From positions 1,126 through 65,125 of IMG/VR virus record IMGVR_UViG_3300031555_003913: a stretch of DNA of 64,000 nucleotides; one strand, written 5' to 3'. The notes under the pieces were generated by a model. That model was not told where the DNA came from, searched no databases, and saw only the letters and a list, made by a program, of their open reading frames with translations. The DNA comes from a virus. Positions 2,849 through 42,753 of this stretch are shown piece by piece; the first letter of the stretch is position 1, and each line of letters begins with the position of its first letter. The position numbers and the translations under genes are program-made.

Positions 2849-3595
2849 ATGACAACAGCAAGAATATTTGAATTAAAAGAAGCGGAAGGTAAATTAGTAC
2901 ACTTCCCGCAGCCGCCTAAGAAGCGCCGCACTAACAGCAGCTTGAAATCTGACGGCAAACCAAAGCCTACTAAGGCAGATCCTATCCGCGATGTTGCAGA
3001 CATTGGCAAGGTACAGGAATATTTTCTGGATAAAGGCAACTTCCGTAACTACATGCTGGTTACATTGGGCATTAACTTCGCCCTGAGAGCCGGGGATTTG
3101 CTGAGCATTACATTGGGGGATGTATATGAGACAAGTGGCAAACCAAAGGACTTCTTCTACCTGCATGAAGAAAAAACCAGCAAGCGGAAGAAGGTAAACA
3201 TCAACTCCCTCTGCAGAGAAATACTGGCAGAAAATTGGGAGGATCTTTATCAGCCGCACATGGAAGAGCCGCTGTTTCCGAGCCGCAACTACGACAAAGA
3301 AACTGGCCTGCATAAGCCAATTACCATCCAGCGCCTTAATCAGATACTGGCAGAGGCACAGCGAGATACAGGCATAGTGGATCATATGAGCAGCCACTGC
3401 CTCCGTAAAACACATGCTTATCAGACCATGAAGGAGGCCAGCAACAAGCAGGAGGCTCTATACGCAATGCAGCACAAACTAAATCACAGCGACGCAAAAG
3501 TGACTATGATCTACTGCGGCATAGAAGATGATATAGTCAGAGAGCTGGATGAAAAGGCCGGAAACTTTACAGGCAACATCCGCCGCAGAAAGTAA
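2849..3595 (+). CDS. Tyrosine recombinase/integrase family protein
   Basis: Catalytic R (ALRAGD), K, HxxR (HCLRKT), H (LNHS), Y (TMIY); GGAGG RBS before ATG 2849. Confidence 0.9.
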   Translation: MTTARIFELKEAEGKLVHFPQPPKKRRTNSSLKSDGKPKPTKADPIRDVADIGKVQEYFLDKGNFRNYMLVTLGINFALRAGDLLSITLGDVYETSGKPKDFFYLHEEKTSKRKKVNINSLCREILAENWEDLYQPHMEEPLFPSRNYDKETGLHKPITIQRLNQILAEAQRDTGIVDHMSSHCLRKTHAYQTMKEASNKQEALYAMQHKLNHSDAKVTMIYCGIEDDIVRELDEKAGNFTGNIRRRK

Positions 3596-5244: not shown

Positions 5245-6030
5245 ATGAAAAATGAAATTACAGTATTTAACAACGAAGTATTTGGAAATTTACGTAGTGT
5301 AAATATTGACGGTGAACCTTGGTTTGTAGGAAATGATGTTGCGGAAGCTTTAGGGTACGCTCGCCCACGTAAAGCCATTCTAGACCATGTGGACGAAGAA
5401 GACAAAATGAAGGACGTCCCAATTCGGGACCCCCATGGTGTAGAACAATATCCCACATGGATTAATGAGTCGGGATTATACTCATTGACACTAAAAAGTA
5501 AACTTCCTGCGGCAAAAAAATTTAAGCGTTGGGTAACATCAGAAGTTCTTCCTTCTATTCGGAAGACCGGCGCCTACATGTTGCCGGAAGTTCTGCAGCA
5601 AGCTACAGAGGATCCTGAGTACTTGAAATATATCGTCAACTTATTGAACGAAGATCAAAAACGTAAACAGTTAATTACAGTTGAAGTAGTGAAATTGAAT
5701 ACATCTTACCACGACTGGAATAATACACAAGTTACGCCACTGATAAATGAGTTACAAAAGTTTCATCCGTCTCATACAAACTATGAGATGTTAAAAGCTA
5801 CTTACCGTGCGCTTAAAGCATATGACGGATTTGATGTTTATGCTATGAGGGATAACTTTATAGCAGAGCAAATGCACATTGCAAAAGAAAATAATCTTGA
5901 AGTATCATCTGATGAATTTAGAGTTCCATATCTTTATATGATTTACGAAAACATGGAATGTCGTCTTCGATATATGAAGACGTTATATGAGATGATTGAA
6001 ACTGAGTATTCCCAGGGGGTGACCGCTTAA
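5245..6030 (+). CDS. BRO-N domain (antirepressor-like) protein
   Basis: FGNLRSVNIDGEPWFVGNDVAEALGY...INESGLYSL...AKKFKRWVTSEVLPSIRKTG signature. Confidence 0.9.
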   Translation: MKNEITVFNNEVFGNLRSVNIDGEPWFVGNDVAEALGYARPRKAILDHVDEEDKMKDVPIRDPHGVEQYPTWINESGLYSLTLKSKLPAAKKFKRWVTSEVLPSIRKTGAYMLPEVLQQATEDPEYLKYIVNLLNEDQKRKQLITVEVVKLNTSYHDWNNTQVTPLINELQKFHPSHTNYEMLKATYRALKAYDGFDVYAMRDNFIAEQMHIAKENNLEVSSDEFRVPYLYMIYENMECRLRYMKTLYEMIETEYSQGVTA

Positions 6031-9000
6031 TGTTTGCACCAAAACTTTATACGGTATATAAAATCCCTATGCGGGATATAGCGGCGGCTGATTACAACAT
6101 TGAACGGTCAGAGGATGAATTGCGGCGGTATAAAATCCGGCAACAAGATGGCAGTATGCTAAGACTTATTAGACTTATCACCGGCGATGATGGTCAATTC
6201 AATCCGTATATTATCTTTGTGAATATCGATAAGAAGGACGAAGATATTATCCGGCGGATAGTTATGGAGGGTTTCTGGCTTAACGGTCGGCACTTTATAA
6301 TGTCCGAGCGGTCGGCCTCTATGACACGAACTGGAATTCTGAGTTTTGTTGATGAAGAAATCGAACCGGAACTTAACCGGCGAATAACGATGGATATCGA
6401 GTTTGATAAAACTGTACTGAGTAAATAATACATTTGCTCCTCTGTGTGGCGACATACAGAGCAAACTCCTTTAATTGCTGGAACTCCCTTAGAGCATCGT
6501 CGGCTACAACATAATCATGAAATATAGATAGGTGTGAATGCGAAAAAACAACGATGATTGGGAAATCAGCAGCCAAGTCTCGAATAGAGAAAGGTTCATC
6601 GACTATTCCGTAAGGAAGTACGCTAAGCGGCGGAAATGGGGAGCGTCTCACTGAGATGAAGATATAGTCAGTGCTCTATGGAAACATAGAGAAATTGAAT
6701 TTGTGATAAAAATCTTAAATGAAAGGAGGAACAAAATGTTAATACTTGAACGAGAAATTGAAATGATAGCAGTTACAGAAAAAAATGCAAATTATTATCG
6801 TAATAAAGGATATAATGTACAACTTAGAATACCATTTAATGTTAAACCTATAGATCTTCCACCAGGCTCAAACAAGAAGGTATGGGTTAAATGTGATTAC
6901 TGCGGCAAAGAATATCAGATGGTATTTCAAAAATACATCAAGCGTGTTTTAGAGGCGACAGTACATAAATGTGCATGTAGAGAGTGTGAACATCTTAAGA
7001 TTGCAGAGAGCAATATGATTAATTATGGTATGAGTACCAATGCTTTGCCGGAAGTAAAAGCAAGGAAGTTACAATCCAACAGAGACAACTACGGTGTCGA
7101 TAACCCAATGCAACTTAAGAAGTTTCAAGATAAACAAAAACAGACAATGGTTGATAGATACGGTGTCGAATATTCTGCGCAAAGCTCTACATTAAGAGCG
7201 AAAACAATAAATACTTGGATGACGAATTATGGAGTAAATCACCCATCAAAATCAAATGAAATTTTAGAAAAGAGAAATAAGAATAATTTAGAAAAATACG
7301 GAGTCGAACATACCCTGCAGTTAGATTCGGTTAGAGAACAGATAGCGCAAACTTCATATAAGAATAGTACTTGTAAAGTCAGTGCAGAGCAGCTTCATCT
7401 AAAAGAATTGTTTAGTGCAGATCTGAATTATCCTATCGGGAAATATAATGCTGATCTTCTTCTTGCTGATGATGTGATTCTTGAACTTGATGGAAGTGGA
7501 CATGAGTTAAACATACTTTATGGAAATGTAAGTCAAGAAGAATTTCAGAGAAAAGAAGAACGACGTACAAGATATATTTTAAGCCAGGGATATAAGATTA
7601 TCAGATTCTCTCATAAGAGACATACACGTATTAGAGACTGGAAATATATAGACGCTTTGGAGAAATGCTTGGATAAGTTAGACGCCTATAATTGTGTGTG
7701 TTATGATTTTGATACAGATGAACTTATAGTATAAGACTTTTAATCACAAATTCAACTGTATGAGATTAGCGAACTTATACAGTAACAAATCAGAAATATT
7801 ATAGTTATAGAGGTTTACTCCTGAGCGCATGTCATATGTTAGAAGGATTCCGACCAAAAGTTATCGTTGTTCCAGATTACTTCCGCATAGTTCCGGATCA
7901 GCATATTAAGTACGCTTACGACGACACTATTGAGTTTATTGACAAAGAAGGTCGTGATCGAATTTGGACACAGAAATCTATTGGGCAAGATATAAGAGAT
8001 ATAGAAATTAATGCATTTGATGGATGTGGTATCCACCACCCTGCTATTTCTCGCCAGGTTGAAGAGATCCTTAGAAGTAAAACGCAGATGTCTAGTATTC
8101 TGTGGAGAATGCCTTGGATTAAAGGAGTAACCCATGAATTAGATTATTCATCTTTCTTTAATGAAAACGGAGTTCACACAATAAAGGATATGTGGGGAGT
8201 AGAACATGACGTGAATGATCCAATGATTATCTGTACTGAATCAATGTATAAAGGGTTTAAACATTTTAAGGTATATGGAGATGAACGGGATTGGGAACTA
8301 TATTGGGAAAAGTTTGAAAAATATGACCACTGTATTGGTATTGCGAAATGGAATTTTACCGCCGATGAAGAGCCGGTATATACCCGGGCAAACTATCAGA
8401 TACTCCAAGACCTTAACTTACCTTATGAACAATTTAGAGAACTTGCTACTTATAGTGTAGAGTGGGCTGAGAAAATTATCAGCGGCGACCCCCTCTACAC
8501 TTTTTGTTTTCTGGGAATGATGGCCGACAATCATGTTCCAAAGAATGATTACGCCGCGGCCATATTAAAGAATCCTGAAATGATTAAGGAACAGAGCGTA
8601 AAAAAATATCTGATGAGTTTGCTGAGTAAATATCGTGACGATATGAAGTGTGGGAAACTTTGGATGAAGGCAGCTTTTAAGTTTTTAACTCCAGACTTGA
8701 TTATGCTTATGCAACATATTGGTGGACTTGAACCAATCGGATGCCTGGAATCCAATGAGTTTTATTCTCATAATAAGGACGGCGTTATCCTTGGAGAACG
8801 GTTGATTGAAAGAAATCCTCATATCTGCAAATCCGAACATGTTATTCTTACTGGCGTTCAGAATGAATTAACAAACATCTACTGTTCACATTTGGATAAT
8901 ATTTGTATGATAAATTCAAAAAGTATTACGAACGCACGTTTGAATGGTGCCGATACAGATGGCGACCTTGTTTTCTTAATCGATAACCCATTGATGATGA

Positions 9001-10156
9001 GTGGTGTCGATCGAAATGCACAAGTTGTTATGGATACAGAAGATAAAATTACTGCAATGGCCGAAGAAGACACTCCGGAAAATAGAGTGTCTCTAGTATT
9101 GAGAACTATTAATTCTTTAATAGGCGAATGCAGTAATACATCAAGTTGTTTCCATAATAAGAAACCAAAGAGTGAAGAGGTAAAGAAAAAATATGAGAGC
9201 TACATTGACCTGCTCTCAATTATTAACGGTAATCGCTTTGCCGTTATAAAATTTCGTGAACCCCGCCCGGGGGTGTAGGGTTATACCCTGCTAACGGTCA
9301 ACTAAGCCGAAAGGCTAAGGTGGTAAGAGAACCTAAATCCATGCTGGATACGGTAATACCGTGCGAAGCACCGCAAGGTGAACGTGTAGAGACTAATGGT
9401 GATGAGTGTAACCATGTAGGAGAAGAGATAGGCACTTCTTCCAAGCGCGAAACTACATAGTAGAAGATATAGTCCACATTCCATGAAAATGGAAATTGTT
9501 TGAAGGCGATAGATTACGCAAAAACCGGGGTGTTATATAACATACCAAAACACATAGCAAAATATAGCAAACCCCTCCCCTACTTTATGAAGTATGCATC
9601 GGAGTACTACGGCGGCCTTCACACCTTCTCCAATGCGCCGAGCAATATGAATCGGCTCTGCAAAGATCTGGAGAAGTGGTCGCAGCGGCAGCATTACACC
9701 ATCAACAGCCGCGATTTCGATTGGACAATTATGTTGGATGATTCTATTCCACATGATGAAGATAAGCAGGAGCAGATAAATAGGACCTATCTTGAATTCT
9801 GCCGCGAGATGTCTACCCTCGCCCACGACCAGTCACAGATTCGTAAATATGGGGATGAATCACTGAGCAAATACGATGCACGTAACTTTACAATTAACTG
9901 GGGATATTATTACGATAGATATCGCGAACGTTGTCAGGAGATTTGCCCAGATATTAAAGAATTGGCAAACTTGGCAGTTAGAGCTTGCTATGAATATTAT
10001 CCTCAGAAAAAGAACAGTAAGTTTATGTGGCGTGTTGCCGGCGAAGGTATTGTACAAAATATTGACCAACAGACCTTCCCCCTTCCAATGCGGGATGATA
10101 AAGGTGAATATGAGTATTTGGGAAAACGCTATAGATTTGAAAATATAATTATATAA
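6030..10156 (+). CDS. yonO: YonO-like single-subunit RNA polymerase, spliced from exons 6030-6422, 7794-9230, 9503-10156 (827 aa)
   Basis: GADTDGD catalytic motif, RNPH and AIDYAKTG motifs; junctions read KTVLS|KYYSYRGL and SIING|KAIDYAKTG in frame. Confidence 0.88.
6423..7793 (+). mobile_element. Group I intron RNAP-I1 with homing endonuclease in P9
   Basis: P1 GAGU/GCUC with U-G; P10 AUUU/AAAU; P AATTGCTGGAA, Q AATCAGCAG, P7 GACTA (6601)/TAGTC (6665); terminal G7793; stem TTGAATTTGTGAT/ATCACAAATTCAA encloses the ORF. Confidence 0.92.
6736..7734 (+). CDS. Intron-encoded endonuclease, Vsr/DUF559-like PD-(D/E)xK domain with YGV repeats and Zn finger
   Basis: ADLLL...ILELDGSGH...GYKIIRF C-terminal motif; CDYCG; repeated NYGV units; GGAGG RBS. 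Confidence 0.8.
   Translation: MLILEREIEMIAVTEKNANYYRNKGYNVQLRIPFNVKPIDLPPGSNKKVWVKCDYCGKEYQMVFQKYIKRVLEATVHKCACRECEHLKIAESNMINYGMSTNALPEVKARKLQSNRDNYGVDNPMQLKKFQDKQKQTMVDRYGVEYSAQSSTLRAKTINTWMTNYGVNHPSKSNEILEKRNKNNLEKYGVEHTLQLDSVREQIAQTSYKNSTCKVSAEQLHLKELFSADLNYPIGKYNADLLLADDVILELDGSGHELNILYGNVSQEEFQRKEERRTRYILSQGYKIIRFSHKRHTRIRDWKYIDALEKCLDKLDAYNCVCYDFDTDELIV
9231..9502 (+). ncRNA. Group I intron RNAP-I2, ORF-less, 272 nt
   Basis: P1 AACGGU/GCCGUU; R GTAGAGACTA, S AAGATATAGTC; terminal G9502; splicing restores the frame. Confidence 0.92.
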
Positions 10157-10169
10157 GGGGGAATTTGAG

Positions 10170-11021
10170 ATTATTAATGAAAGAGTTGAGGTTCAACAGT
10201 ACCTCCAGGGGAAAAATCTGCATCGCGATATTGAATATCGTATTTGTTTGTTGCTGGCGAAGTGGTATTACGAACAGGGGTATACTACTGTAGAAGGAAT
10301 TAGAGAACAGTTAAAACACTGGGCTAAAGAAAATCGTTTTTACTTTGAGGTGGCCATGAATCCGGTGGCCGCCCGGGTAATTAATGATAAAATGAAACTT
10401 CAGGGAGATTATACGGTATATATCAGCGACAATGATATTAATGAGATAAAGGAGCGTTTTGACAATTACTATGAGCGTTTGGTAGCCTTAGGGGTGCTTG
10501 CTTATGCTAAAGTATATGCTGATAAAAATGGCGAATTTAAACTGTCTCATTCTGGTGTATCCAGATGGCTTGGTATAAATTTGCAAACGGTTACCAAATA
10601 CATTGATATGCTTGAGCGGCTGAAATACATAAAGAAAGTCAAGACAGGAACAACAAAGTCGTGGTATCAGAAAACAGTAGCGGTTCAGCTGAATAGATAC
10701 CGCATTTTAGTTCCGTATGAAAATACCGGCACTCATGCATTGGCAAACAACAACATTGCGGCGGCTTATGACGAGATCTTTAATGGGTGTAATTATGACG
10801 CAGAAGAATGGTATCCTATCCCAGGATTTAATGACTGGTACGAAGTTAGCAATATGAATCGTGTGAAAGCCAAAGAAAGAGAAATCGGATTGCGACTTTA
10901 TCCAGAAAAAATCATCAGACCTTTCAAGAGTAAGTCCGGTAAATTATATGCAAATTTAACAGACGAAAGCGGTAAACAGAGAAAACTTAGCATAGAAAAA
11001 CTCCTTGAAATTTCCAGATAA
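10170..11021 (+). CDS. Conserved phage HTH protein with C-terminal NUMOD4 motif (probable ATT start)
   Basis: Frame open upstream of 10248 to ATT after AAGGGGG RBS; central HTH-like segment; EEWYPIPGFNDWYEVSNMNRVK is NUMOD4-like. Confidence 0.7.
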   Translation: MINERVEVQQYLQGKNLHRDIEYRICLLLAKWYYEQGYTTVEGIREQLKHWAKENRFYFEVAMNPVAARVINDKMKLQGDYTVYISDNDINEIKERFDNYYERLVALGVLAYAKVYADKNGEFKLSHSGVSRWLGINLQTVTKYIDMLERLKYIKKVKTGTTKSWYQKTVAVQLNRYRILVPYENTGTHALANNNIAAAYDEIFNGCNYDAEEWYPIPGFNDWYEVSNMNRVKAKEREIGLRLYPEKIIRPFKSKSGKLYANLTDESGKQRKLSIEKLLEISR

Positions 11022-30126: not shown

Positions 30127-31140
30127 TTGTTGAAGATGAATAGATTGCCGGTGATAACTCCGGATGAGTGGCTTCAATGTAATGAATACAATAGAAATAT
30201 ATTAGATGAATTTTTAATGAATTCTCCTCAGCTATCAGATCAAACAAAGAAAGCTTATAAATCCAATCTAATGATTTGGTTTAATTGGGTTCGCAAGAAT
30301 TTGAATAATAAAGCACAATATGAAATTAAGTCGATTGAGTTCATGAAGTTCCAAAATTGGCTTATTTCGATGGATAGAAGTTCTGCAGATATTACTAATA
30401 AGAGAGCTGCGGTGTCTACTCTGAACAACTATATTGTTTTATATTACAGTGATGATTTCCCTACTTTTAAGAATTTTATTGTTAAAGGGATGCCAAAACC
30501 TGAGGCATCATTCGTAAATGAAAAGAATCCGCCTACAAAAGAGGAATTTCTGCATATTGTCGATGTCATGAAGGAACGTGGTGATTGGCAGAAAGTTGCA
30601 TATCTGTTATATACGTTTGATACCGGTTGCCGTAGGGCCGAGTCAGTTCAACTACTCAAAGAGGTGGTTGATTACGAGCCAGTGATTAAAGAGAAAAAAG
30701 TGTATAATGAAGATGGTACATATGAAATAAAGACAGTGAAATATTATCATAGTAATCCAACCCGCTGTAAGGGGCGCGGCAAAACAGGCAAGGTACGCAA
30801 ATTAGTATTTTCTGAGGATACTATGAATGCTATTAGAAAGTGGCTTGAGGTTCGTGGTGATGATGATTGTCCATACGCGTTTGTTACAAAACACGGAAAT
30901 GCTGCTACGCAGTTATCTCCTACTACACTTAATAAATGGGCTGTAAATATATTCTCTCCTATTCTTGGGCGACGTTTTCATCCTCACATTCTTAGAGAAG
31001 CGAAAGCTACAGTTAGTGTAGTTGAAGAAGGAAAGAATATTTCTGCAGTTCAAAGATTGCTTGGACACGAAAGTTCCTCAACTACTGAGATATATGTAAT
31101 AGCTGATCTCGATGAAGAAATCGACGAATTATTTTTATAA
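30127..31140 (+). CDS. Tyrosine recombinase (YomM-like position before the tape measure)
   Basis: TGCRRAE, KGRG, HPHILR, LLGH, TTEIY. Confidence 0.9.
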   Translation: MLKMNRLPVITPDEWLQCNEYNRNILDEFLMNSPQLSDQTKKAYKSNLMIWFNWVRKNLNNKAQYEIKSIEFMKFQNWLISMDRSSADITNKRAAVSTLNNYIVLYYSDDFPTFKNFIVKGMPKPEASFVNEKNPPTKEEFLHIVDVMKERGDWQKVAYLLYTFDTGCRRAESVQLLKEVVDYEPVIKEKKVYNEDGTYEIKTVKYYHSNPTRCKGRGKTGKVRKLVFSEDTMNAIRKWLEVRGDDDCPYAFVTKHGNAATQLSPTTLNKWAVNIFSPILGRRFHPHILREAKATVSVVEEGKNISAVQRLLGHESSSTTEIYVIADLDEEIDELFL

Positions 31141-31235: not shown

Positions 31236-34200
31236 ATGAAATATATGGCTGACCCTATTCGTATACAAATAACACAAATCAGTATTGACTCAAATAAGAA
31301 GCCAAAAATTTTTAGTACTTTACAAGCTGAGATTTATGGCCATTTATTTGATGTAAAGATAGGAAGTATTTCCTTAGCAGATGCTGTTAATTTTACAAAA
31401 CTAAGAAAAGATGTTGAGCTTGGAATAAATCAAAGCCCAATTAAAATACTTGTAAATCATGATATAATTCAAAATCAGATTGTCACAGCCGTTAAGTCAT
31501 CAGAATATATTCTTAATACTGGTGATGGAATTAATGTTAAAATAAATGAGTCTCAAATTCGTTCTGATATTGGCTCTGCAATGCAAGTTGCTATTTCAAA
31601 TACGGATGCACAGATAACATTACCGGAGATTAATTTAGGCGAAGTTTTTAAAAATTTGGAAATGCCTAAATCTTTTCCAACTGATTTACAAAAAATAATT
31701 AACAGTTTAGAAAAATTTACAAATGCATTTGAGAATAGTGGAGCAAAAATTACTAAACAGACAAATAATCTTAAAGCGTATCAGAGTGCAATTAAAGATT
31801 TAAGGAAGTCATATCTTCAAAATTTTGAATCTTCTTTGCAATATGCCGATGATAAATCAGCTCCTGAGTGGAAGAAAGCCGCGAGGTTGAACACTCAATC
31901 ATATAATGCAATTAACGAAAGACTTGCGGAACTAGGTGCGACAAAAGAAATTCGCGATAGCATTGCACAGAGCATCAGACTTGAAGAGGAAAAGATTCGT
32001 GCTGCCTTTGAAAACAAGCGGCTTAAGCAAATGGAAGCCGATGAGCAAAAAGAACTTAATGCTCATTTAAAAGAAGCAAATCGTTTATTGTCTGATTACC
32101 AGGCAAAATATAAAGCATACGTTTCTTTAGTTGGAAAAGAAGGTACTAAAGAGCATACTACGGCCTATGAACAGTTAGATGTTGCACGAAAAAGATTCGA
32201 AGACTTTTTTGACTCAGTGGAGCTACGCGAGAAAGACGCTGACGAGTTGCGCGAAACTTTTGATCGTGTGATGACAAGCTCTCATGAAAAGTATCAAATG
32301 AGTGAGTCTAGGACGTTTGACTCTTTAGTTGAACGTTCTAAGGAGTATAAAATTGAGCTTGAAAATTTATTAATTACTGATCGAAAGCTTAAGAATATGA
32401 CGATATTCGATTCTGATATCGTTAAAGACCAGGATTATGCTGGATATACTAAAAATCTTGAACGAGCTAAGTCAATTCTTGGTGACATCAGAAATATGGA
32501 TCAGTCCGGCGATTATGCAGGCATTGATAAGTTGTATAAAGAACTTGACGATTTAGTTATAAAAATCAACGCATTTTCAAAGGCTAAGCAAAATGCAAAC
32601 GCAGCGGTTCTTTCTGACAATAAGGAGATTGATAAGTTAAATAAACTTGGACAATCCTTAACAAGATATTTAAATGATTATGAAACCAGGTTGAAGAGAT
32701 TCCCTGATTTATATAGTCAATTTATTGAACTTCAGAGAAAGTTAAACAACAATGAGATTATTTCTGCTGATGCTGCTAGAGAACTAAATCGAATTCAGAT
32801 GGAAGCAAGAGCGGCTGGCGTAGAAGTTGATACGTTATGGCGCAAGCTCAAAAAGGCGTTTATGGCCAACATGCGTGGCCAGCTTGCAAACATGGGATGG
32901 ATGGCGATTACAACGTCATTTAGACAAGTTTACCAGAACGTCCTCCAGCTTGACACTGCAATGACCGAGCTGAAAAAGGTTACTAATGAGACGGAAGATG
33001 CCTATATTCAGTTCTTGGACAACGCTGAGAAGCGAGCTAAAAGGCTTGGCGCTACGTTAGTAGATGTAGTTAACGCAACGGCTTCATACAGCAGGCTTGG
33101 ATACGATATTCCTGATGCTTCTAATTTAGCCGATGTAGCGATTACTTATATGCATGTTGCAGATGGTGTCGACAGTATTGAAGACGCTACATCTATTTTA
33201 GTAAGTTCAATGCAGGGCCTTGGAATTGCAGCAAAAGATGCGATGTCCATTGCAGACATTTATAATGAAGTAAGTAACCGGTATGCTTCTACCGCTGGAG
33301 ATATTGGCGAAATAGTAAAAAGATCTGCTGCGACAATGAAAGTTGCCGGAAGCGATATCAATGAGATTGTAGCTCTTGGTGTTAGTGCGAATGAGGTTCA
33401 GCAAGATGCTGACGTCGTAGGGACTGCTTTGAAAAGTTTATCTATGCGTCTCAGATCTAGCAAGAGTGATTTAGAAGCTGCGGGCGAAGATACAGAAGGA
33501 ATGGCGGATTCTGTATCGAAATTGCGAGAAGAAATTCTTGCATTAACTGGCGTTGATTTGATGTTAAATGACGATACATTTAAGACGCCTTATACAATAT
33601 TAATGGAAATTGGTGAGGTTTGGGACGACCTTACTGATGTAAGCCGGGCTAATGTTAACCCGATTGTACAGAAATGTGCATAAAGAACAGATCTAAAACC
33701 AGTAACCCCTAAAGCTTGACTACTACAATGCGGATGAAATAAGCTGGCATGAAAGTAACGAAAGTAAAACAACAGTCAAGATGGTATATGGACAAAATCC
33801 TAAGTATCGATACAATGGGTATTTGGTCGCGAAGTCTCGAATAGAGATGTGTCAAACGACTATGGCATAGGCAGAAATGCAAAACCAGTACGGCGCAAAT
33901 TTATGGCGCGGGTGAAATTCCCTTAATTGGAAAAGGTCTGCCCTTCCAGGTAATGCTGAAGGTGAAGAAATAGTCTATTCTTATATGAAAATATAAGGTG
34001 TTATTTGATATTTAAATTTTAGATAAATGGATAAAAAATTTGATAAAGAGTATTCAACACAATTTGTGGACGAAATGAAATTTTTACAAGAGCATGGTAT
34101 TAATTATACTTTTGTAAAAACAATAAATGGGATTACGACATATAAATACGAAAAAACTCCTCAGCTATTTTATTGGCTGAGGATTTTTTATTGTCGATAA

Positions 34201-37200
34201 CTATTTTTTTGATTAATAATAGGTGATTAAATGAAATATTCATATGAGGAAATTAAATCCATGTTTGATGAACGTGGTTACGAGTTGGTTACAACAAAAG
34301 AAGAATTAGATGGTATGGCTGTAACAGATAAAATTAAATACATATGCCCAAAACATAGAGATTGCGGTATCCTGTCTATAACGTATCATCACCTGAAACG
34401 AAATCGTGGATGCAAATATTGTGGAAGAGAAAAAGCTGCGGAAAAGAGAACAAAGCCACTAGATGAATTCAGAGCAAAGGCAAAGGATTGTCTTGAATCT
34501 AAGGGATTAGAATTTGTTAATGTATTTCGTTCCAAAGACACAAATGGCCGTGCGGTGATAATGGTTGAATTTATCTGTCCAAAGCATAGAAAATATGGTA
34601 TCCAAACTACAAAATATGGAAATCTAATGTTTAGAGAAACTAATGGGTGTAAATATTGTATAGGAAAAGATATTCCAAAGGAAGAAATTTTCAAACAAAT
34701 ACAGGATATTCTGCCGCATATTGAAATTATTAGTGAGTTTAATGGTGTTAGTAAACCAATAAAATATCGCTGTAATATACATAATTATGAAGGCTGGTCT
34801 ACTTGTCAAAATTTATTGGCGGGAAGAGCTTGTTATTATTGTGGCTTAGAAAAATTAAGAAAACATAATACACTTTCTCAAGATGAATTTGTAGAAAGAG
34901 TCTGCAAGATAAATAAAGACATTGGAATCATAGGAGAATATCGAGGATTTGATTATCCCGTAAAAGTACACTGTAATAGATGTGGTAACACTTGGGATGC
35001 ACCCGTGTATTCATTATATCGTAGGGAGCATGGATGCCCAGTGTGTAATATGTATACTGGAGAAGGCGTAATCTATGAATTGCTTACTCAATGGGGGTAT
35101 AATTTTGATACGCAGCACAGGTTTAAAGATTGTGTCGATAAGAAACCTCTTCCATTTGATTTTTATTTAGAAGATTATAATATAGCAATTGAGTTCGATG
35201 GAATATTGCATTATATTCCTAAAATTCTTAAAAGAGGTATGACCCAAGAAACTGCAGATTATTCACATAAAAAGACATTAGAACATGATTTTATTAAAGA
35301 AAGTTATTGCGCAGATAATGGTATAAAATTAATAAGAGTTCCATATTGGGAATATGACGAAGGAAATGTCCCATATTATTTATTCGATCATTTAGTAGAA
35401 TATGGAGCTATGGAATTGATTACCTAAATATATAAAATATCAAATAACCTATGTCGAGTTATGACCGACATATAATATTAAGTAACGTTGGTGAATTATT
35501 ATTCGGGAAGCGTCAGGCTTCGATAGGATTTAGTATCCTTGAGAACTATGAACGCGCGCAAGAAATATATGAAGCGACTCTGGAAGCTCAAGGTTCTGCA
35601 GAATTAGAGCACCAAAGATATCTCGATTCCATTCAGGGACGGCTCGATAAGCTCACAGCTTCTTGGCAATCCCTGTCTAACACACTCCTGGATGATGGTC
35701 TTGTAAAAGACTTTGTATCCGGAGCAACAACAGCCCTCGACGTTGTAAATGCAATCGTCGAACAACTTGGCCTTATGCCAGGTCTTATTGCTGCCGCAGG
35801 CACTGTCTGGGCGCAGCACAATAATGTAGGTAAAGAATGTGCCCTCTTACTGAGAGCCGCATAGCAATCAGTAGGATGTTACCGGCCGTCAACCGGTAAT
35901 ACAAAACTTTCAAATTGCTGGAAAAAGCTAAAGCTCCCCTGCCCTTTTGGGAGAGGAAACTCAGAAATAACTGGGGAGATGAGGTATGCTGAGATAAAAG
36001 CCGCTTTGTGGTGCTAACCCTCGTTACAATGCTTAATCAGCAGCGAAGCCCTTAGGGGAACGCTCAACGACTACTTGGAAGTTGGAGTCTGTCATCTATA
36101 AAATATGCGTTTGGTGACAGGCTTTTAATGGATAGTCTGAACTGTGCCGAGAGGTACAGAGGGAGGATGAAGTGCCTCCCCGCCGTAATTACGATAATCG
36201 CCCTCCCCTTCTTTGAGGAGAGAAGGATGGGAAAATATAAGCCGGACATGGTGGGCCGGCAGGTTGTTGCCGGCAACAGAAAAACTGGCCAATTTTATGA
36301 GAAAAGGAATGATAAAATGAAAAAGAATTTTTATGAAAAATATTGGTGGATACCACATGTAGCGTCTAGTGTTGCATTGGTTGTATCACTTCTAACTCTA
36401 ATAGTAAGGCTATTGCTGATATTATAATTGCAACTACCGATAATCCAACAGGAAGCCAAAATTGAAGCATGTTTTATTAATTTACAGAAATTCTCTGTTT
36501 TTATTTGTTGCATTTCATCTATTTTTGTGTATACTTAAAGTAAAGACATATATAGAATAAGTTTGAAGGGGGGAATTTTGAATGACATTTAAACCAACTA
36601 ATGTAGCTTTTATTATTGCGCCAGAAAAAGCTGAAGATTTCCTAAAGTCAAAAGATGCAAGCGCTAAAAAAGCTATGGAGCGTTTTTATGCACACCAGCC
36701 AAAAAAAGGCATAAAGACCCCGTATAAAGGCAGTAATGAATAGGTATAGATTTGGCGAAGAAATAGAATACAAGTATAATCTATTAGAGGCTGATGATTT
36801 TAATAATCTTCAGCTTTTTAGTTGTGGAAATACACAAATGGATTATCATTTACATAATGAAGTAATTGTAGAGGGTAAGCTTAGGAGTGAAGATGGGCTA
36901 TATTATAAATTCTACGATGAAAAAACGAATGAAATTTTAGCTGTTGTGTCGTTAGCCACTTCTGGTATTTTAAGACAAATAGGTACATATAGTCATATAT
37001 TACCTGCAATAAAAATTGATATTTTTGCTGTAGATAAAAGATATCAAAAGATGCATTTCAACGAAGAGTCTCAGTCGTCATATATACCGGATGAACATTA
37101 TTATTTTAGTGACGAAGTGATTGGCAATATTATAAGACGTTGCATGGAAATTAGTGAAAATTTTGCATTAGCACAATTTGTTGTTGCGTATGCTGATGTG

Positions 37201-40200
37201 AAAGCTTATCGTTTCTATGAACGAAATGGATTTGGCAATTTTGAAAATTTTATGATAGAAGAACATAATATGGAAGTTTCAAAAAATATTCCAATGTATC
37301 TCAATCTTTTTGAATAACGCAAAAGACCAAGCTAAATAGCCTGGTCTTATTTTATTTCCACGTATATCCACAGTTATCACACGCATTAACCATTTTATTC
37401 ATACCAGCTACACCCGCTACCGCTGCTACATCCAGGAAGCCGGTAGGTAAACACCATAGAAAGGAGAACCGTAATGACATATGAATTAGTTTTACAAAAC
37501 ATGTCAGACTACGAGTCATACTTAATCAAACTTGTCGAATCAGATGCGCTGCTATTAGATAAAGTGTTTGTATTTCCTTTTAAATTCGTTCTTCGGTAGT
37601 TAGTCTACGTAGATTCCGACTTTATTTAAAGCCTTTTTGAATTCACGTGCAAACTTAGATGTATCTACAGAAATATCCTCTCCACAATACTTACATTTGT
37701 ACAAGAATTTTGATGCTTTAAACACATCTTTTGATTTAAACGTTTCGGAACGTCTACATTTTGGACATTCAAGTTCAAATTTAGGATTATCGTCACAAAA
37801 TGCTTTTAAGTATTTTTCCATGGTATCATCTCCTATTTCCACGTATGGCCACAATCGTTGCAACAGTTAATCATCTTATTAGAACCAACACCGCCAGCAG
37901 CAGCGGCAACATCTACGAAGCCAGTTACTGCGGCAGTAGCGATTGCCCTACCCCATTTGAAGCCGCGCTTGGTTTTACCGAGATTAGTGGAGCCGCATTT
38001 TGGACAGTGAGGTTTGGAATTATATTCACGAGTGATTTGTTCTGCTTCTTCTATCATAGAGTTATACACCTTCTGGTGTTTTTCAAGATCGTAATCAGTA
38101 TCCTTAAGAAATTCTTTCGTAACAAATTCAAATAATTCGAAACCATTTTGAGGATCTCTATGATAAACGTCGTAGAATCTATAACTCCACTCATCATCAT
38201 CGCTGCCGGTATAAATCATTTCCCCTCCACATTCTGGACATATTAAATCCGCACAGCAGTCAAACCATGTTGCTGTACTACATTCTTTGCAAATAAAAAC
38301 ATCTTCAAGTTCATAACTATAACTCATATAATCACCCTCCTCTATTTAGTGATTATATCAAAAATAGTAATTACGGTCAATAAAGTAACAGTTGACATTC
38401 AATAGCACTAGCGATATGAGTATTGCTGGTATACTATCTTCATATAAAGGAAACTCAGGCACAATAGTCAGTGGATCTAAAAATATTGCCGCATTAAAGG
38501 AATGGAACGCTGCAATTAAAGAAGGTGGAAAAGAGCTAAAACGACTTGGTACGATAAAAAAACAGCTCGATAAAGAGTACAGAGGTCTTGTAAGTGTATT
38601 AAAAAAGGAAGCGGTAGAACTTAAAGTTGTTGGAAGAAATGCTGTTGTCGGCGCTAACGGACTCAAAGGCTTAGCTACCGCAGCTAAGCTTGTAGGTAAA
38701 GAAATGCTTCTTGCTGCCGGTCAGTTTGCAATCTTTGCGGCGGCAACTTGGGCAATCAGTAAGGCAGTTGAAGGATTAGTATGGCTCTATGACGAGTTCT
38801 CAATGTCGATGAAGGCGACGGCTAAGAGAGCTGAAGAATCTGCAGCAGCACTTCAGGAAACTGAATCTGAAATAGAATCTCTTGAAGGCGAACTTGAAAC
38901 AGTTAGAGATCGTATTGAAGAGATTCAGTCTTTAGGCTCTTTATCTCTAACCGAACAATCAGAATTAAAAACACTTCAACTTGAAAGCGCTGAATTAAAG
39001 AAACAAATTAAGCTTCTTAAAGAAAAAAAGAAAATCGAAGAAGCTGAGCTCATTGAGGATAATATCGATGCAATTCATTCGTATGATTATCAAACAACTA
39101 TCAAAGTTGATTATGGAACTGCGAATGCGTATAATGACTCCCTTACACTTCCTGAGGAATTTGCATATAGAACAGAACAGTTAAAAAAGTATAGAGCTCT
39201 TCTTGCAGATTTAACTACCGATGATGAAAATTATGAACATTATCATGAGTTCTATACTAATCAAATCAAAGAGCAAAGCGAAGCCATTACTGAACTTAGC
39301 CTTGCAATTGATGGATATAGAGTTTCATTAGATGACATTCCGGAAGCAGAAAAAAACTACTTTGAACAGTTATACGCCGCTGAGAATAAAGCATTATTGG
39401 AAAATGGCACAATGTCCATCATGGACTTTATTAGTGCTGGTTTAGATGATAATGGGCTTGAAGAGTTCAATCAGCAAGTTGATGAAATGGCCAAAGCCGG
39501 AAATGCAACGAAAGATTCCATAGAGGACGCTTTTGGCAAAACAATCATTCCTATTCTTCATGAAGCCGGTCTTGTTGGGGACGAAGCGGCAGATGCACTT
39601 TTAAATCACATTTCTTCTCTTCGCAACGTCGGCGATGTAGTTGAACAAGTCATCGGTAATAACTCTGCTTTCTCCGATGTTCACTCAAAGATTGATAAGA
39701 TAACTACAACCGGATTTGATATCAATACTGATAGTGTCAGAACTGCGCTTGGCGAAGACTTTACTGCCGCCATGGATAAGGCTGGTGTATCTATCGATGA
39801 CCTTTGCAGTTGGCTAAAGACTCTGCAGAGTGAAGTTGACAGTTTTACTATCAAAGATATTACGGAAGATTTAACCGCTATTGAAGAGAAAATGGACGCC
39901 CTTTCAGATGCATACTATGAGTTTGTAGATGAATCTGGAAAAGTTAAATCTGCAACGCTTGATAGCATTGCAGAAACCTTCGCTGGTCTCGATGATACAA
40001 GAGCATTAGAGAACTTTATAAATATTCTTGGTGATTCATCTTCTACTATTTCGGAAGTTAAAGAAGCGCTTAACGGCGTAGTAGATGCATATTTTGCAGA
40101 AGAAGCTACGGCTAAACGTTTAACTGAAGCGAATAGAGATCTTTATGAATCTCAGTTAAAGCGACTTGGTATTGCGAATTATGAAGATGTTGTTTCTTAT

Positions 40201-42753
40201 AATTTAGCAGTCGCAACATTAAAAGAGTTAAGCGCAAAAGAAAAACTAACAGACGCAGAAAAAGAACAGTTAATAGCTGCTCAAAACACTGTCGATGAAT
40301 TAGATGCCGAAGGCGATGCGTTATCATATTTGGCTACTCAATTATTGGATGCAGCAACTCAGACTGCATTATTAGAATCTAAGCAAAATGGTATAGCCGA
40401 TTCTAATTTCGCATCTGTATTACAGAGTCATGCTGCAGCACTTTTAATTGTAGCAGAAGCTGCAGGTCTCTCTGTCGATAACATTAAGGCTTATCTTGAT
40501 GCAATAAGATATAAGGAATATTATGAAAGCCATATCGCTAAGGGTGACCGTGTTTCAGATGACGATATAAAACGATATGAAGATAAGTTATCAATCATTG
40601 ATAAAAATCAAGAAACGGTTGATAAACTACACGATCTTCTTTATGGTGGCGTAGAGACTGATACGACGCCTCAACGTACCAAAGACCAATCCGGAAAAAC
40701 TGCAGCGGAAGAAGCGTATGAAAAAGCTAAGAAAAAGCTCGACAAGCAGTTGGAACGTAATAAGATTACATACAATCAGTACTATGAATCTCTCGTTGAC
40801 TTAGGCAACAAGTACTACAAGGGCGACGCTGAAAACATAAATGAGCATTATGCTACATTGGCTGATGTTCGTCGTGACGCTTACGCCAAGTATCAAGGTG
40901 ACTTGGATAAGAACCTTGAAAAAGGTATTATTTCTCTTCAGGTTTACCATGATAAGTCTATGGCCCTTTCTAAGAAGTGGCTTGATGGCCGCAAGGCTAA
41001 CGAAGAGGATTACAAAGAAGCTGTAGAAGCTATATATGACCAGATCAACGATTATTGGGGCGACCGTATGTCCAAGATGGAAACCCAGATGGATCGTTGG
41101 AATTTGGATCAGACATGGGATCCTGATTTAACAAGGGTAAAAGTCTGGGAAAATGAACTGGCCGCACTGGATGCTGACTATAAAGCCGGCCTCTTTGATT
41201 CAGAAAGAGACTATTTTGATAAGCGTTATGAACTGCTCGAAAAGCTAAGCGATGCTCGTAAAGAATCTTATGAAGCTGAGCTTGATTTAATCGAAGAACA
41301 AAAGGACTCTATCCAGGAGCTCATTGACCTTACAAGCGAAATGCTCAAACAGCAGAAGGAAGATGAGATCGAAGCCCTGGAAGAACAGGCAAAACTGTAT
41401 TCTGACATAGTCTCCAAGAAAAAAGAAGCGCTTGACATTACTCGCCAGGAGGCTGACTATCGACGTGAGTTGGAAGAGCAAACTGCTGCACTGACTGAAC
41501 TTCAGGCAAAGGCCGCAGTATTGGCGCTCGATGACAGTCGTGCCGGCCGAGCTGCATATCAGGAAGTTCTGAAGCAGATTAAGGAACAGCAGCAGACAAT
41601 TGCTGACACCCAAGCTGATCATACATACGAAGGCAGTATTACCGCCCTTGATGAAGCTGAAGCAGCTTATCAGGAATCCGTCGATAAGAAAATCCAGGCA
41701 ATCCAAGATTTGTTAGACCACGCCGGCGAATGGCTTGAATATGTGTACTCTTATATCAAGACCACCAATCCATCTAAGTTGTTCGCTGAACTGCGGGACT
41801 ATAATTATCAGTATGGCTCTGGCATAAATGATACTGTTGACGAAATTCAGAAATCGTCTGCTCAGTTGCTGAGTTCCTTTAATAGCAGTATTCCAGATAT
41901 CCTTGCTGCCTTAAAACAACAGAAAGAATCTGCTGAAGCAGCTATTGAAGCGGCCGGCAATGAAGAGGACTCTACTCCATCCGGAAACTATAAAAGCCAG
42001 ATTAGTTCTGCTCTAAATAAGAAGATACAGGCAAGCACAACTGAGAACAACAAACATTCTACCAACCGTGGATTGGTGACTGATATCAAAAAAGAGACAG
42101 GTCTTGATTCATGGTATGATGAAAAGAATAAAGTTATCTATATGGGTTCCGAAGGCGACCGCAGGGTGACTGCCGGTGCTTATAACCTAATTGAACAGCT
42201 TCGTGAATTAAACAATTCAGGTGGAACGCGCAAAGAAAAAGAAGTCGCCATGGAAGAGATCATGACAAAGCTTAAGCGTAAATGGTCTTATACAGGCGCT
42301 TATCTTGAATGGAAAGGCAATACGGCGAAACTCTATAAGAGCAAGGATTTACAGGTCTTCCATACTGGTGTACAGCAAGGTATTGTTGGCGGCAACCAGT
42401 CTGGCAACAGACATCAGCGCGAACTACTTGCTATGCTTCAGGCTGGCGAAATTGTTCTGAACCGACAGGACCAAAATGTACTGCTTGCAAATCTGCAGAC
42501 GCTTGAAACTATGGCAACTACATTAAAGAAGCTTCAGCTGGATACTATGCCGGTTGGCAATGTAGGGGCAACAGAGGTCAACGTAACTGTTCAGGCACCG
42601 ATTACTATTACTGGTTCTGCTGATGCGGATACATTGAAGGAACTCGAAAAGTTTAAGAAGAATATTTCTAAGGATGTTCTTGGCGAGGTTACTGACGCAA
42701 TGAAGAAACGTGGATATAGCAGCAACACTGCTGCAAATGCACGTAAGAAGTAA
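31236..42753 (+). CDS. Tape measure protein, spliced from exons 31236-33649, 35483-35831, 38395-42753 (2373 aa)
   Basis: TP901-type core LDTAMTELKKVT...VGTALKSLSMRLR; junctions DVSRA|NVGELLFGKRQ and NNVG|TFNS; coiled coils; FHTG...AMLQAGEIVLN near the C-terminus. Confidence 0.88.
34027..34200 (+). CDS. Small intron-encoded protein (57 aa)
   Basis: MDKKFDKEYSTQFVDEMKFLQEHGINYTFVKTINGITTYKYEKTPQLF...; manually translated. Confidence 0.6.
   Translation: MDKKFDKEYSTQFVDEMKFLQEHGINYTFVKTINGITTYKYEKTPQLFYWLRIFYCR
34231..35427 (+). CDS. Intron-encoded endonuclease: Zn-finger repeats plus C-terminal Vsr-like PD-(D/E)xK domain
   Basis: Four CxxH/C...CxxC units; LPFDFYLEDYNIAIEFDGILHY...IKLIRVPYW. 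Confidence 0.82.
   Translation: MKYSYEEIKSMFDERGYELVTTKEELDGMAVTDKIKYICPKHRDCGILSITYHHLKRNRGCKYCGREKAAEKRTKPLDEFRAKAKDCLESKGLEFVNVFRSKDTNGRAVIMVEFICPKHRKYGIQTTKYGNLMFRETNGCKYCIGKDIPKEEIFKQIQDILPHIEIISEFNGVSKPIKYRCNIHNYEGWSTCQNLLAGRACYYCGLEKLRKHNTLSQDEFVERVCKINKDIGIIGEYRGFDYPVKVHCNRCGNTWDAPVYSLYRREHGCPVCNMYTGEGVIYELLTQWGYNFDTQHRFKDCVDKKPLPFDFYLEDYNIAIEFDGILHYIPKILKRGMTQETADYSHKKTLEHDFIKESYCADNGIKLIRVPYWEYDEGNVPYYLFDHLVEYGAMELIT
36317..36427 (+). CDS. 36-aa single-TM peptide (type I toxin-like)
   Basis: MKKNFYEKYWWIPHVASSVALVVSLLTLIVRLLLIL; AAAGGA RBS. Confidence 0.5.
   Translation: MKKNFYEKYWWIPHVASSVALVVSLLTLIVRLLLIL
36508..36535 (+). promoter_or_regulatory. Sigma-A type promoter inside the intron
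   Basis: TTGCAT-16 nt-TATACT, upstream of the small ORF and GNAT gene. Confidence 0.55.
36582..36743 (+). CDS. Putative antitoxin (53 aa)
   Basis: MTFKPTNVAFIIAPEKAEDFLKSK...; GAAGGGGGG RBS; overlaps the GNAT start by 8 nt. Confidence 0.6.
   Translation: MTFKPTNVAFIIAPEKAEDFLKSKDASAKKAMERFYAHQPKKGIKTPYKGSNE
36736..37317 (+). CDS. GNAT acetyltransferase, TacT/AtaT-like toxin candidate
   Basis: FSCGN..MD..L, LPAIKI..FAVDKRYQ, A..FYERNGF motifs. Confidence 0.75.
   Translation: MNRYRFGEEIEYKYNLLEADDFNNLQLFSCGNTQMDYHLHNEVIVEGKLRSEDGLYYKFYDEKTNEILAVVSLATSGILRQIGTYSHILPAIKIDIFAVDKRYQKMHFNEESQSSYIPDEHYYFSDEVIGNIIRRCMEISENFALAQFVVAYADVKAYRFYERNGFGNFENFMIEEHNMEVSKNIPMYLNLFE
37321..37353. terminator. 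Bidirectional terminator within the intron
   Basis: AAAAGACCAAGCTA-A-TAGCCTGGTCTTATTTT. Confidence 0.65.
37352..37444 (-). pseudogene. C-terminal relic paralogous to 37833..38327
   Basis: TGFLDVAAVAGVAGMNKMVNACDNCGYTWK* versus TGFVDVAAAAGGVGSNKMINCCNDCGHTWK*. Confidence 0.8.
37474..37599 (+). CDS. Small protein (41 aa)
   Basis: AAAGGAG RBS; MTYELVLQNMSDYESYLIKL... Confidence 0.45.
   Translation: MTYELVLQNMSDYESYLIKLVESDALLLDKVFVFPFKFVLR
37600..37821 (-). CDS. Zn-ribbon protein (73 aa)
   Basis: CPKC...CKYCG; AGGAG RBS. Confidence 0.7.
   Translation of the reverse strand: MEKYLKAFCDDNPKFELECPKCRRSETFKSKDVFKASKFLYKCKYCGEDISVDTSKFAREFKKALNKVGIYVD
37833..38327 (-). CDS. Double Zn-ribbon protein with Gly/Ala hydrophobic segment
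   Basis: CKEC/CPECG, CPKCGS...CNDCG; GAGGAGGG RBS. Confidence 0.8.
   Translation of the reverse strand: MSYSYELEDVFICKECSTATWFDCCADLICPECGGEMIYTGSDDDEWSYRFYDVYHRDPQNGFELFEFVTKEFLKDTDYDLEKHQKVYNSMIEEAEQITREYNSKPHCPKCGSTNLGKTKRGFKWGRAIATAAVTGFVDVAAAAGGVGSNKMINCCNDCGHTWK

Follow-up and report, generated by a model that had tools for sequence, protein, structure and literature searches.

What is a gene pair with the layout of a toxin-antitoxin (TA) operon doing within the tail tape-measure protein (TMP) gene of a gut phage, and what do its two genes encode? The question is posed by a 64,000-base stretch of DNA (hereafter the window) from the IMG/VR virus record IMGVR_UViG_3300031555_003913, a record of 65,125 bases estimated to be ~40% complete. 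The window contains a long plus-strand series of phage structural genes and three tRNAs, and its TMP gene lies in three pieces separated by two intervening sequences. The ~2.5 kb between pieces 2 and 3 contain the cassette studied here, in which a gene for a protein of 53 amino acids (aa; 36582-36743) is followed by a gene for a divergent GNAT acetyltransferase of 193 aa (36736-37317), both on the plus strand. This cassette is probably a type II TA-like module composed of the divergent GNAT and a minimal antitoxin partner. The gene pair is real, conserved and mobile, and, judged from sequence, it lies wholly inside the 3' extension of a cargo-bearing group I intron, an unusual location for such a cassette.

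The two open reading frames (ORFs) reported by the first-pass annotation were confirmed on the plus strand. They share 8 nt (ATGAATAG); a strong Shine-Dalgarno sequence, GAAGGGGGG, is located at 36565-36573 ahead of the 53-aa ORF, and an in-frame TGA immediately precedes the ATG of that ORF. The motifs by which the larger product had been recognised were present in its translation as FSCGN (residues 28-32), PAIKID (90-95) and FYERNGF (160-166), and they occupy conserved or invariant columns of a 29-sequence alignment. The annotation had further likened this product to TacT/AtaT-type GNAT toxins, an assignment that was upheld in silico by both sequence profile and fold. Against PHROGs, the 193-aa protein matched phrog_1758 'acetyltransferase' (E 7.8e-10). 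A profile of 29 homologs searched against the PDB sequences returned 12 sequences at E ≤ 10, led by 9ilr (GmvT, 3.5e-6) and 7byy (5.7e-5); the other 10, at E 0.19-0.58, comprised nine TacT/AtaT chains and one unrelated sequence, 2k4k. The entry 7byy is ItaT of E. coli, according to a paper citing that code (PMC7367177). An N-terminal motif, F-(S/D)-C-G-N-x-x-L, was common to the 193-aa family, GmvT and ItaT.

Structure prediction pointed to the same group of enzymes. The AlphaFold (AF2) model of the 193-aa protein had a predicted local distance difference test score (pLDDT) of 83.6 and a predicted template-modelling score of 0.81. In a Foldseek search with this model, 7byy was the best match (E 9e-10), followed by AtaT2, TacT, AtaT, KacT, TacT3 and GmvT. 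In VIA-align, the top 18 entries were all tRNA-acetylating TA GNAT toxins (Z 15.2-17.3; root-mean-square deviation 1.9-2.9; 141-156 residues aligned), after which came Ard1 at Z 13.2 and then other N-acetyltransferases. The catalytic tyrosine of the known toxins (Y140 in TacT, Y144 in AtaT, Y145 in KacT) has a putative counterpart in Y161, which is invariant in 29/29 aligned sequences and which, within 'rfYerngf' of the profile, aligns with the position occupied by F in 5FVJ, a TacT crystal that carries Y140F (PMC4942678). Profile and predicted fold together support the assignment of the 193-aa protein to the GNATs of the TacT/AtaT/ItaT/KacT/GmvT toxin type.

The 53-aa partner is of a different character. 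The first-pass annotation had doubted that it is a canonical ribbon-helix-helix (RHH) antitoxin, and this doubt was borne out. The protein had no Pfam match even at E ≤ 10, DUF1778 was detected in 0/16 members of its family at E ≤ 1, and the family profile matched no antitoxin in the PDB at E ≤ 10. The family comprised 91 homologous clusters of 28-95 aa, all unnamed or 'hypothetical', with PF13275 in one cluster as the sole Pfam match. Four matches were longer, two of them (P0058 and P0060) resembling gene calls extended in the upstream direction and one (P0061) having an acidic tail; no fusion to a known domain was found among these three longer forms examined. The family alignment revealed a Lys-rich tail. 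Modelled alone, the small protein formed two helices (residues 14-22 and 26-37) with a pLDDT of 65.6, too poor for a fold search, and the best scores of a protein atlas search (0.82-0.84) fell on unnamed clusters, below a meaningful level.

Structure prediction, unsuccessful for the isolated small protein, was informative when the GNAT was included. With alignments supplied for both chains, the complex of the 53-aa protein and the GNAT scored 0.89 in the interface measure ipSAE versus 0.06 for the best control; of 80 solved complexes, 58 reach the ipSAE mark of this prediction, as do 2 of 110 mismatched pairs. Agreement in contacts between runs was at least 86%, and the pLDDT of the partner was at least 78. 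The predicted contacts involve residues 7-14, 16-41 and 44-48 of the small protein. Residues 7-14 are predicted to touch the sheet edge of the GNAT at residues 76-81, and the helices to touch the remaining contact segments, namely 122-137 (start and body of α3), 149-152 (β5), 164-175 and 184-193. The C-terminal βB-αC-αD part of the antitoxin KacA wraps KacT and impairs acetyl-CoA (AcCoA) binding and dimerisation (PMC6698736). Because the predicted layout is of the same kind as in KacA-KacT, the small protein may be an antitoxin reduced to its toxin-binding module. An RHH reading of the strand-helix-helix was also considered; a toxin-binding strand seems to agree better with the invariant adjacent residues A9-F10 and with the strand that is predicted to pair with the GNAT. 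We regard the partner as a new minimal family that probably acts as the antitoxin.

The distribution of the pair was examined with the same profile. Relatives of the 193-aa protein numbered 57 at E ≤ 0.001 among 127 candidates, and the profile was built from 29 of these 57. Apart from the window's own copy, the relatives exhibited 43-59% identity and were mostly ~190 aa long, with a few fragments or longer gene calls. An all-against-all profile search of the GNAT family yielded 393 representatives at E ≤ 1e-3, 199 at E ≤ 1e-10 and 24 at E ≤ 1e-30. A single-sequence scan of genome contigs gave 33 pattern matches, of which 0 were confirmed. The 29-sequence profile located 15 loci in species genomes of Lachnospiraceae, Treponema, Acetivibrio, Eubacterium and Anaerovoracaceae and 3 loci in viral contigs; with the window, this amounts to 19 loci. 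In 19/19, a 48-54-aa ORF of one family lay directly upstream of the GNAT gene at a spacing of -8 to +9 nt, in line with the annotated order of a small gene followed and overlapped by the GNAT. A flanking protein (≥100 aa, within 4 kb) was common to only 5/171 locus pairs, and therefore the pair moves as a unit. The GNAT gene was broken beside an intact small ORF in two loci (by a frameshift in L012 and by a split with deletion in L015), and a further locus, L010, ends at a contig boundary. The cassette is thus mobile and is found mostly in gut Bacillota and Treponema chromosomes with unrelated flanks. Megablast of positions 35400-38600 against phages gave no match.

Upstream of the small ORF in many of the other 18 loci (L001-L018), the frame is open for 15-25 Lys/Glu-rich codons before the conserved Met (e.g. 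'...TKEEEGIM...'), and a second Shine-Dalgarno-like site is present farther upstream in many of them. The open frame reflects either a longer alternative form of the protein or the imprint of a ribosome-binding site.

As a type II TA module, the pair would operate as follows. The 193-aa GNAT would acetylate the amino group of aminoacyl-tRNA using AcCoA and so stop translation. The 53-aa protein would be translated first, coupled to the GNAT via the 8-nt overlap, and would bind the GNAT directly as a minimal antitoxin, with its short N-terminal strand extending the edge of the GNAT sheet and its two helices covering α3, β5 and the C-terminal strand. Such a layout would equal the toxin-binding C-terminal part of DUF1778 antitoxins minus the RHH domain. 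It is in this sense that we infer toxicity, a tRNA target and neutralisation for the pair.

Several observations weigh against this interpretation. The 193-aa protein, too, had no Pfam match even at E ≤ 10, and PADLOC gave no match at E ≤ 1 for the cassette proteins. The canonical AcCoA pyrophosphate loop has the motif Q/R-x-x-G-x-G/A and binds through backbone atoms; sequence is therefore a poor guide to its function. The corresponding stretch here reads YQK(M/L)H(Y/F) (YQKMH in the window), with an insertion of ~15 residues before HYYFSD and the invariant H121-Y123-S125-D126 at the end of the insertion. ItaT has KYQKRGF there. Autoregulation is a usual trait of type II systems and has no visible basis in this case because neither a DUF1778/RHH domain nor any other DNA-binding domain is detectable in the small protein. 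The score of the predicted complex may partly reflect likeness to solved TA complexes. Finally, PMC9177977 reports bicistronic loci of TA-like form in which the short ORF upstream has no DNA-binding domain, and leaves their role open: where GNATs fall outside the DUF1778 'true TA clade' and follow short, divergent ORFs, the two genes may form TA pairs or have other functions.

It is accordingly conceivable, if fairly unlikely, that the GNAT is not a growth-arresting toxin. Its acetylation target would then be something else, such as a small molecule, a protein of host or phage, or its own 53-aa partner. The partner would act as substrate, specificity subunit or regulator, and the pair would serve an accessory (moron) function. 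The non-toxin role left open for comparable GNATs (PMC9177977), the atypical AcCoA loop and the lack of PADLOC and Pfam matches agree with such a role, as does the Lys-rich tail of the small protein, and the predicted complex suits a substrate or regulator as well as an antitoxin. What speaks for a toxin instead is that tRNA-acetylating toxins fill the top 18 places among the structural matches, at least 2 Z ahead of other GNATs, and that GmvT and ItaT are the sole significant sequence matches in the PDB. Furthermore, the layout is typical of TA systems (small gene first, overlapping, mobile and with unrelated flanks), and two broken GNATs occur beside intact small genes. The TA-like module is retained as the probable interpretation.

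The expression signals annotated around the pair received mixed support. The putative promoter at 36508-36535 on the plus strand, consisting of TTGCAT (36508-36513), 16 nt and TATACT, has only 3/6 and 5/6 matches and is absent from the 16 promoter-like sites listed for 35800-38500, a region in which 10.1 ± 2.7 such sites are expected from shuffles. For these reasons the site is regarded as weak, no better than chance and unproven. The annotated terminator corresponds to a bidirectional terminator-like hairpin and T-run at 37323-37357, which separates convergent gene sets. The hairpin (37323-37348) folds as RNA at -12.5 kcal/mol on the plus strand and -15.9 kcal/mol on the minus strand and is followed by ATTTTATTT. 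A strict terminator pattern scan did not list the hairpin because of one mismatch in the stem.

How the pair is placed within the TMP gene depends on the structure of that gene, all of which is on the plus strand. Piece 1 (ORF 31236-33683) matches phrog_4211 positions 562-833, piece 2 (ORF 35451-35864) continues the exon-1 match at positions 832-948, and piece 3 (ORF 38392-42753) matches positions 2003-2623. Exon 2 was assigned to 35484-35831; its frame is open from 35448, homology begins at ~35484, and its last codon, GGT at 35829-35831, is complete. This exon can be aligned with TMPs that have no interruption, those of L021, PMBT24 and L023. Exon 3 was assigned to 38395-42753, in a frame open from 38389, by its phrog_4211 match and the P10 pairing described below.

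The cassette was annotated as nested in an intron, and the analysis of the intervening sequence agrees. The predicted group I intron (35832-38394, plus strand) is 2,563 nt long, with its core at the 5' end and a ~2.2-kb 3' extension containing four ORFs. The catalytic core (P1-P9, 35822-36159) matches Rfam RF00028 at 79.0 bits (gathering score 50; E 1.5e-20) over model positions 1-253 of 253. The 5' splice site lies between GGT and AAA, and the predicted 3' splice site follows G38394. The internal guide sequence (35835-35843) consists of GAATGT for P10 and then GCC for P1. In P1, GCC (35841-35843) pairs with the exon 2 sequence GGU (35829-35831), with a U35831·G35841 wobble at the splice site. 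In P10, GAATGT (35835-35840) is the exact 6-bp complement of the exon 3 sequence ACATTC (38395-38400), which stands directly after G38394, and the TMP frame is restored by the join; ACATTC occurs 4 times in 35851-38700 and alone proves little. At the 3' end of the intron (38383-38394), the motif AAGTAACAG precedes the terminal G38394, and the same motif precedes the 3' splice site of a homologous intron in a related phage contig, L022.

The L022 intron has a group I core at the same TMP site (47.6 bits). Its P10, in which ATTTAAATAT pairs with ATATTTAAAT over 10 bp, directly after a G and in frame, differs in sequence from that of the window. Another contig, L023, represents an intron-less allele: the last 100 aa of L022 exon 2 align with its residues 17-116 (61% identity), the alignment stopping precisely where the splice site is predicted, and residues 15-299 of exon 3 align with its residues 129-435. 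The tape-measure protein of PMBT24 is also continuous across the junction. On account of the core, the P1/P10 pairings, the L022 homolog and the intron-less L023, the intron was placed at 35832-38394. If so, the cassette would ride as cargo in the ~2.2-kb 3' extension, and splicing would remove it from the tape-measure mRNA; we infer actual splicing, as well as any benefit to the phage.

Some features of the locus sit poorly with an intron of this length. P1 has only 3 bp, and the core was missed both by the whole-window Rfam scan at gathering scores and by a 5.5-kb E-value scan. A 471-base scan recovered the 79-bit core that these longer scans had missed; long insertions seem to defeat the speed filters. 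The terminator-like hairpin on the sense strand (37323-37357) would stand inside the intron, upstream of the essential exon 3. Together with the convergent minus-strand genes between core and exon 3, this hairpin would suit an arrangement without a long intron, in which the TMP is made as separate polypeptides, or a short intron is spliced just after P9, and the cassette is an intergenic moron between tail genes. The ORF at 36128-36427, which continues from the core, would fit as well, and so would the L019 viral contig, whose TMP is split at the same position and which has no RF00028 match even at E ≤ 10. The long-range helix that would close the 2.2-kb loop (36182-36192/38367-38377; 11 bp, one G·U) was reached by 34/500 shuffles and was not significant. 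Such an arrangement is nevertheless improbable: no Shine-Dalgarno sequence precedes exon 3 in the window, in L019 or in L022; in the window and L022 alike, exon 3 begins in frame at the point predicted by P10, with P10 sequences that compensate; and L023, which lacks the intron, runs collinear through the junction.

No RNA run covering 33400-38700 was found, and a DNA form lacking the intron did not turn up in four DNA runs, whose contigs were short, of low depth and identical to the window; two joints in these contigs had sides of only 21-22 nt and were not trusted. The ORF at 36128-36427 (plus strand, 99 aa) overlaps P8-P9 of the intron and encodes a hydrophobic C-terminus, with no Pfam or PHROG family. 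It could be a chance ORF or specify a peptide from unspliced RNA.

Comparison of the window with its relatives suggests that the cassette is not a constant part of this intron. The L022 intron (7349-10185) carries, on the plus strand, an SPP1-type holin (PF04688, E 3.9e-14) and a CHAP/PG_binding_1 endolysin, together with a Zn-ribbon gene on the minus strand and no GNAT pair. In L019, a viral contig of 208 kb, the TMP is split at the same profile position (~950), and a small-ORF/GNAT pair and a phrog_2546 gene lie between the halves; RF00028 was matched neither at E ≤ 1 nor at E ≤ 10, and for this reason its intervening sequence cannot be called an intron. The GNATs of the window and L019 belong to different subclades of a 16-row tree, from which L010, L012 and L015 were excluded as incomplete. 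The approximately unbiased (AU) test rejected their union (p 0.0009), the tested group being defined by common context but after the tree was seen. A three-way DNA alignment of the 5' intron regions was uninformative, and blastn among the intervening sequences of the window, L019 and L021 detected only coding-region similarity. Because L022 has a lysis cassette and the GNATs of the window and L019 come from different subclades, the 3' extension appears to hold exchangeable cargo.

The first-pass annotation had also suggested that the pair might replace homing as the force keeping the intron, and this proposal was not supported by the comparison. It would make the pair an addiction system that holds the intron, the phage or a prophage in place instead of a homing endonuclease. 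No recognisable endonuclease was found among the Pfam and PHROG matches of the ORFs in 35832-38394, where the other ORFs encode Zn-ribbon proteins; the first intervening sequence of the same gene, in contrast, has an HNH/homing endonuclease (phrog_559, E 1.1e-53), and the cassette recurs in another phage, L019, where the TMP is split at the same site. An exchangeable cargo, however, counts against a cassette that keeps the intron in place: the L022 intron persists without a GNAT pair, the cassettes of the window and L019 are of different subclades, and the cassette occurs mostly in bacterial chromosomes with unrelated flanks. Moreover, segregation would not remove an intron from an essential gene, and post-segregational killing would have no obvious target. 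An addiction role of this kind is very unlikely.

The remaining cargo of the window intron is encoded on the minus strand. A 164-aa Zn-ribbon/Gly-rich protein (37833-38327) matches phrog_2546 (E 2.8e-15). L019 and L022 each have a counterpart, likewise encoded on the minus strand and at the 3' end of the intervening sequence; that of L019 matches phrog_2546 at 7.4e-11, and that of L022 is weakly similar to the window protein (E 0.002). An 87-aa Zn-ribbon protein (37600-37863) has weak zinc-ribbon Pfam matches, all below cut-offs. A 55-aa ORF (37352-37519) is a truncated paralogue of the C-terminus of the 164-aa protein (BLASTP, 67% over 30 aa, E 7e-14). The best promoter-like site of the region (38352-38380, minus strand; TTGACC, 17 nt, TATAAT, with TG; 11/12) faces these genes.

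Other interruptions and mobile elements were noted in and beyond the TMP gene. The first TMP intervening sequence (33641-35483) is also group I-like, matching RF00028 in a narrow scan at 31.9 bits (E 2.6e-6; 33641-33997), below the gathering score of 50, after the wider Rfam scans had missed this sequence as well, and the endonuclease ORF between pieces 1 and 2 mentioned above encodes 398 aa (34231-35427). The uninterrupted L021 sets the first exon junction near 33650-33668 / 35481-35500. A third group I intron of the window (6413-6691; RF00028, 89.4 bits) lies between ORFs 6030-6428 and 6703-7734. Two ORFs with Phage_integrase (tyrosine recombinase) domains were found at ~3029-3517 and ~30538-31098 (48.6 and 54.7 bits), the latter domain in an ORF (30127-31140) directly upstream of the tape-measure gene. 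In L023, a different interruption farther upstream in the TMP (6088-6738) contains a 216-aa ORF with a weak match to the I-TevI DNA-binding domain (E 4e-4, below cut-off).

A broader proposal that joins these findings is possible, although on balance doubtful. The 3' extension of the TMP intron might be a portable cargo bay, from which autonomous cassettes are spliced out of an essential mRNA at no cost to the phage: a lysis cassette in L022, the GNAT pair in the window and a pair of another subclade at the equivalent split site of L019. The GNAT pair might in turn represent a new class of type II TA system, with an antitoxin reduced to a strand-helix-helix without a DNA-binding domain, and be used by the phage or its lysogen to exclude rival phages or for retention.

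Even apart from that proposal, the pair offers, for GNAT homologs lacking DUF1778 partners, a specific and conserved candidate for their 'yet unidentified antitoxins', a matter that PMC9177977 left open. This candidate, of ~52 aa, appears to retain only the toxin-binding module. The locus also indicates that genes other than a homing endonuclease can travel in a phage group I intron, on both strands and under expression signals of their own. Nor is the cargo the same in homologous introns: the window has a TA-like pair and L022 a holin-endolysin pair. If splicing is true, introns would offer a safe site for accessory genes within essential phage genes, and annotation pipelines calling split tail genes would need to check for cargo introns. 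In practical terms, long-window Rfam scans can miss a 79-bit intron that a narrow scan finds.

Group I introns in phage tape-measure genes are already in print. A literature search by titles and abstract starts found no published report of a TA module inside an intron, and no paper on a GmvT-GmvA crystal structure was found in the literature search. Like phage group I introns with a homing endonuclease, such as intron 1 of the same TMP gene, the predicted intron has its core in an essential gene and its ORFs in a peripheral extension; its cargo differs, being a TA-like pair and opposite-strand Zn-ribbon genes, each with promoter- and terminator-like signals of its own. Another parallel is offered by the IStrons of Clostridioides difficile, in which a group I intron is fused to an insertion sequence (IS) (PMC4430133). 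Both join a group I ribozyme to cargo other than an endonuclease, the whole being spliced from the host transcript in IStrons (PMC4430133), whereas no transposase or IS ends were seen here and the cargo differs between homologous introns.

With regard to the gene pair itself, PMC9177977 pairs GNAT toxins with DUF1778 antitoxins and, in one clade, with DUF4065. The GNATs placed there outside the true TA clade have the same layout as the cassette, with a short upstream ORF lacking a DNA-binding domain; in the present case, the short ORF belongs to a conserved family of 91 clusters with a predicted complex and is not DUF4065. In comparison to the GNAT/DUF1778 type II systems (TacAT, AtaRT, KacAT, ItaRT and GmvAT), the partner of ~52 aa is without DUF1778/RHH and has no detectable similarity to their antitoxins, and the GNAT is ~25 residues longer, with extra residues inserted in the AcCoA loop, and is recognised by no Pfam GNAT model. 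What the cassette has in common with these systems is a toxin fold that is the best match by both sequence and structure, a conserved catalytic Tyr, a small gene that comes first and overlaps the second, and a partner predicted to wrap the toxin by a strand-helix-helix, like the C-terminus of KacA.

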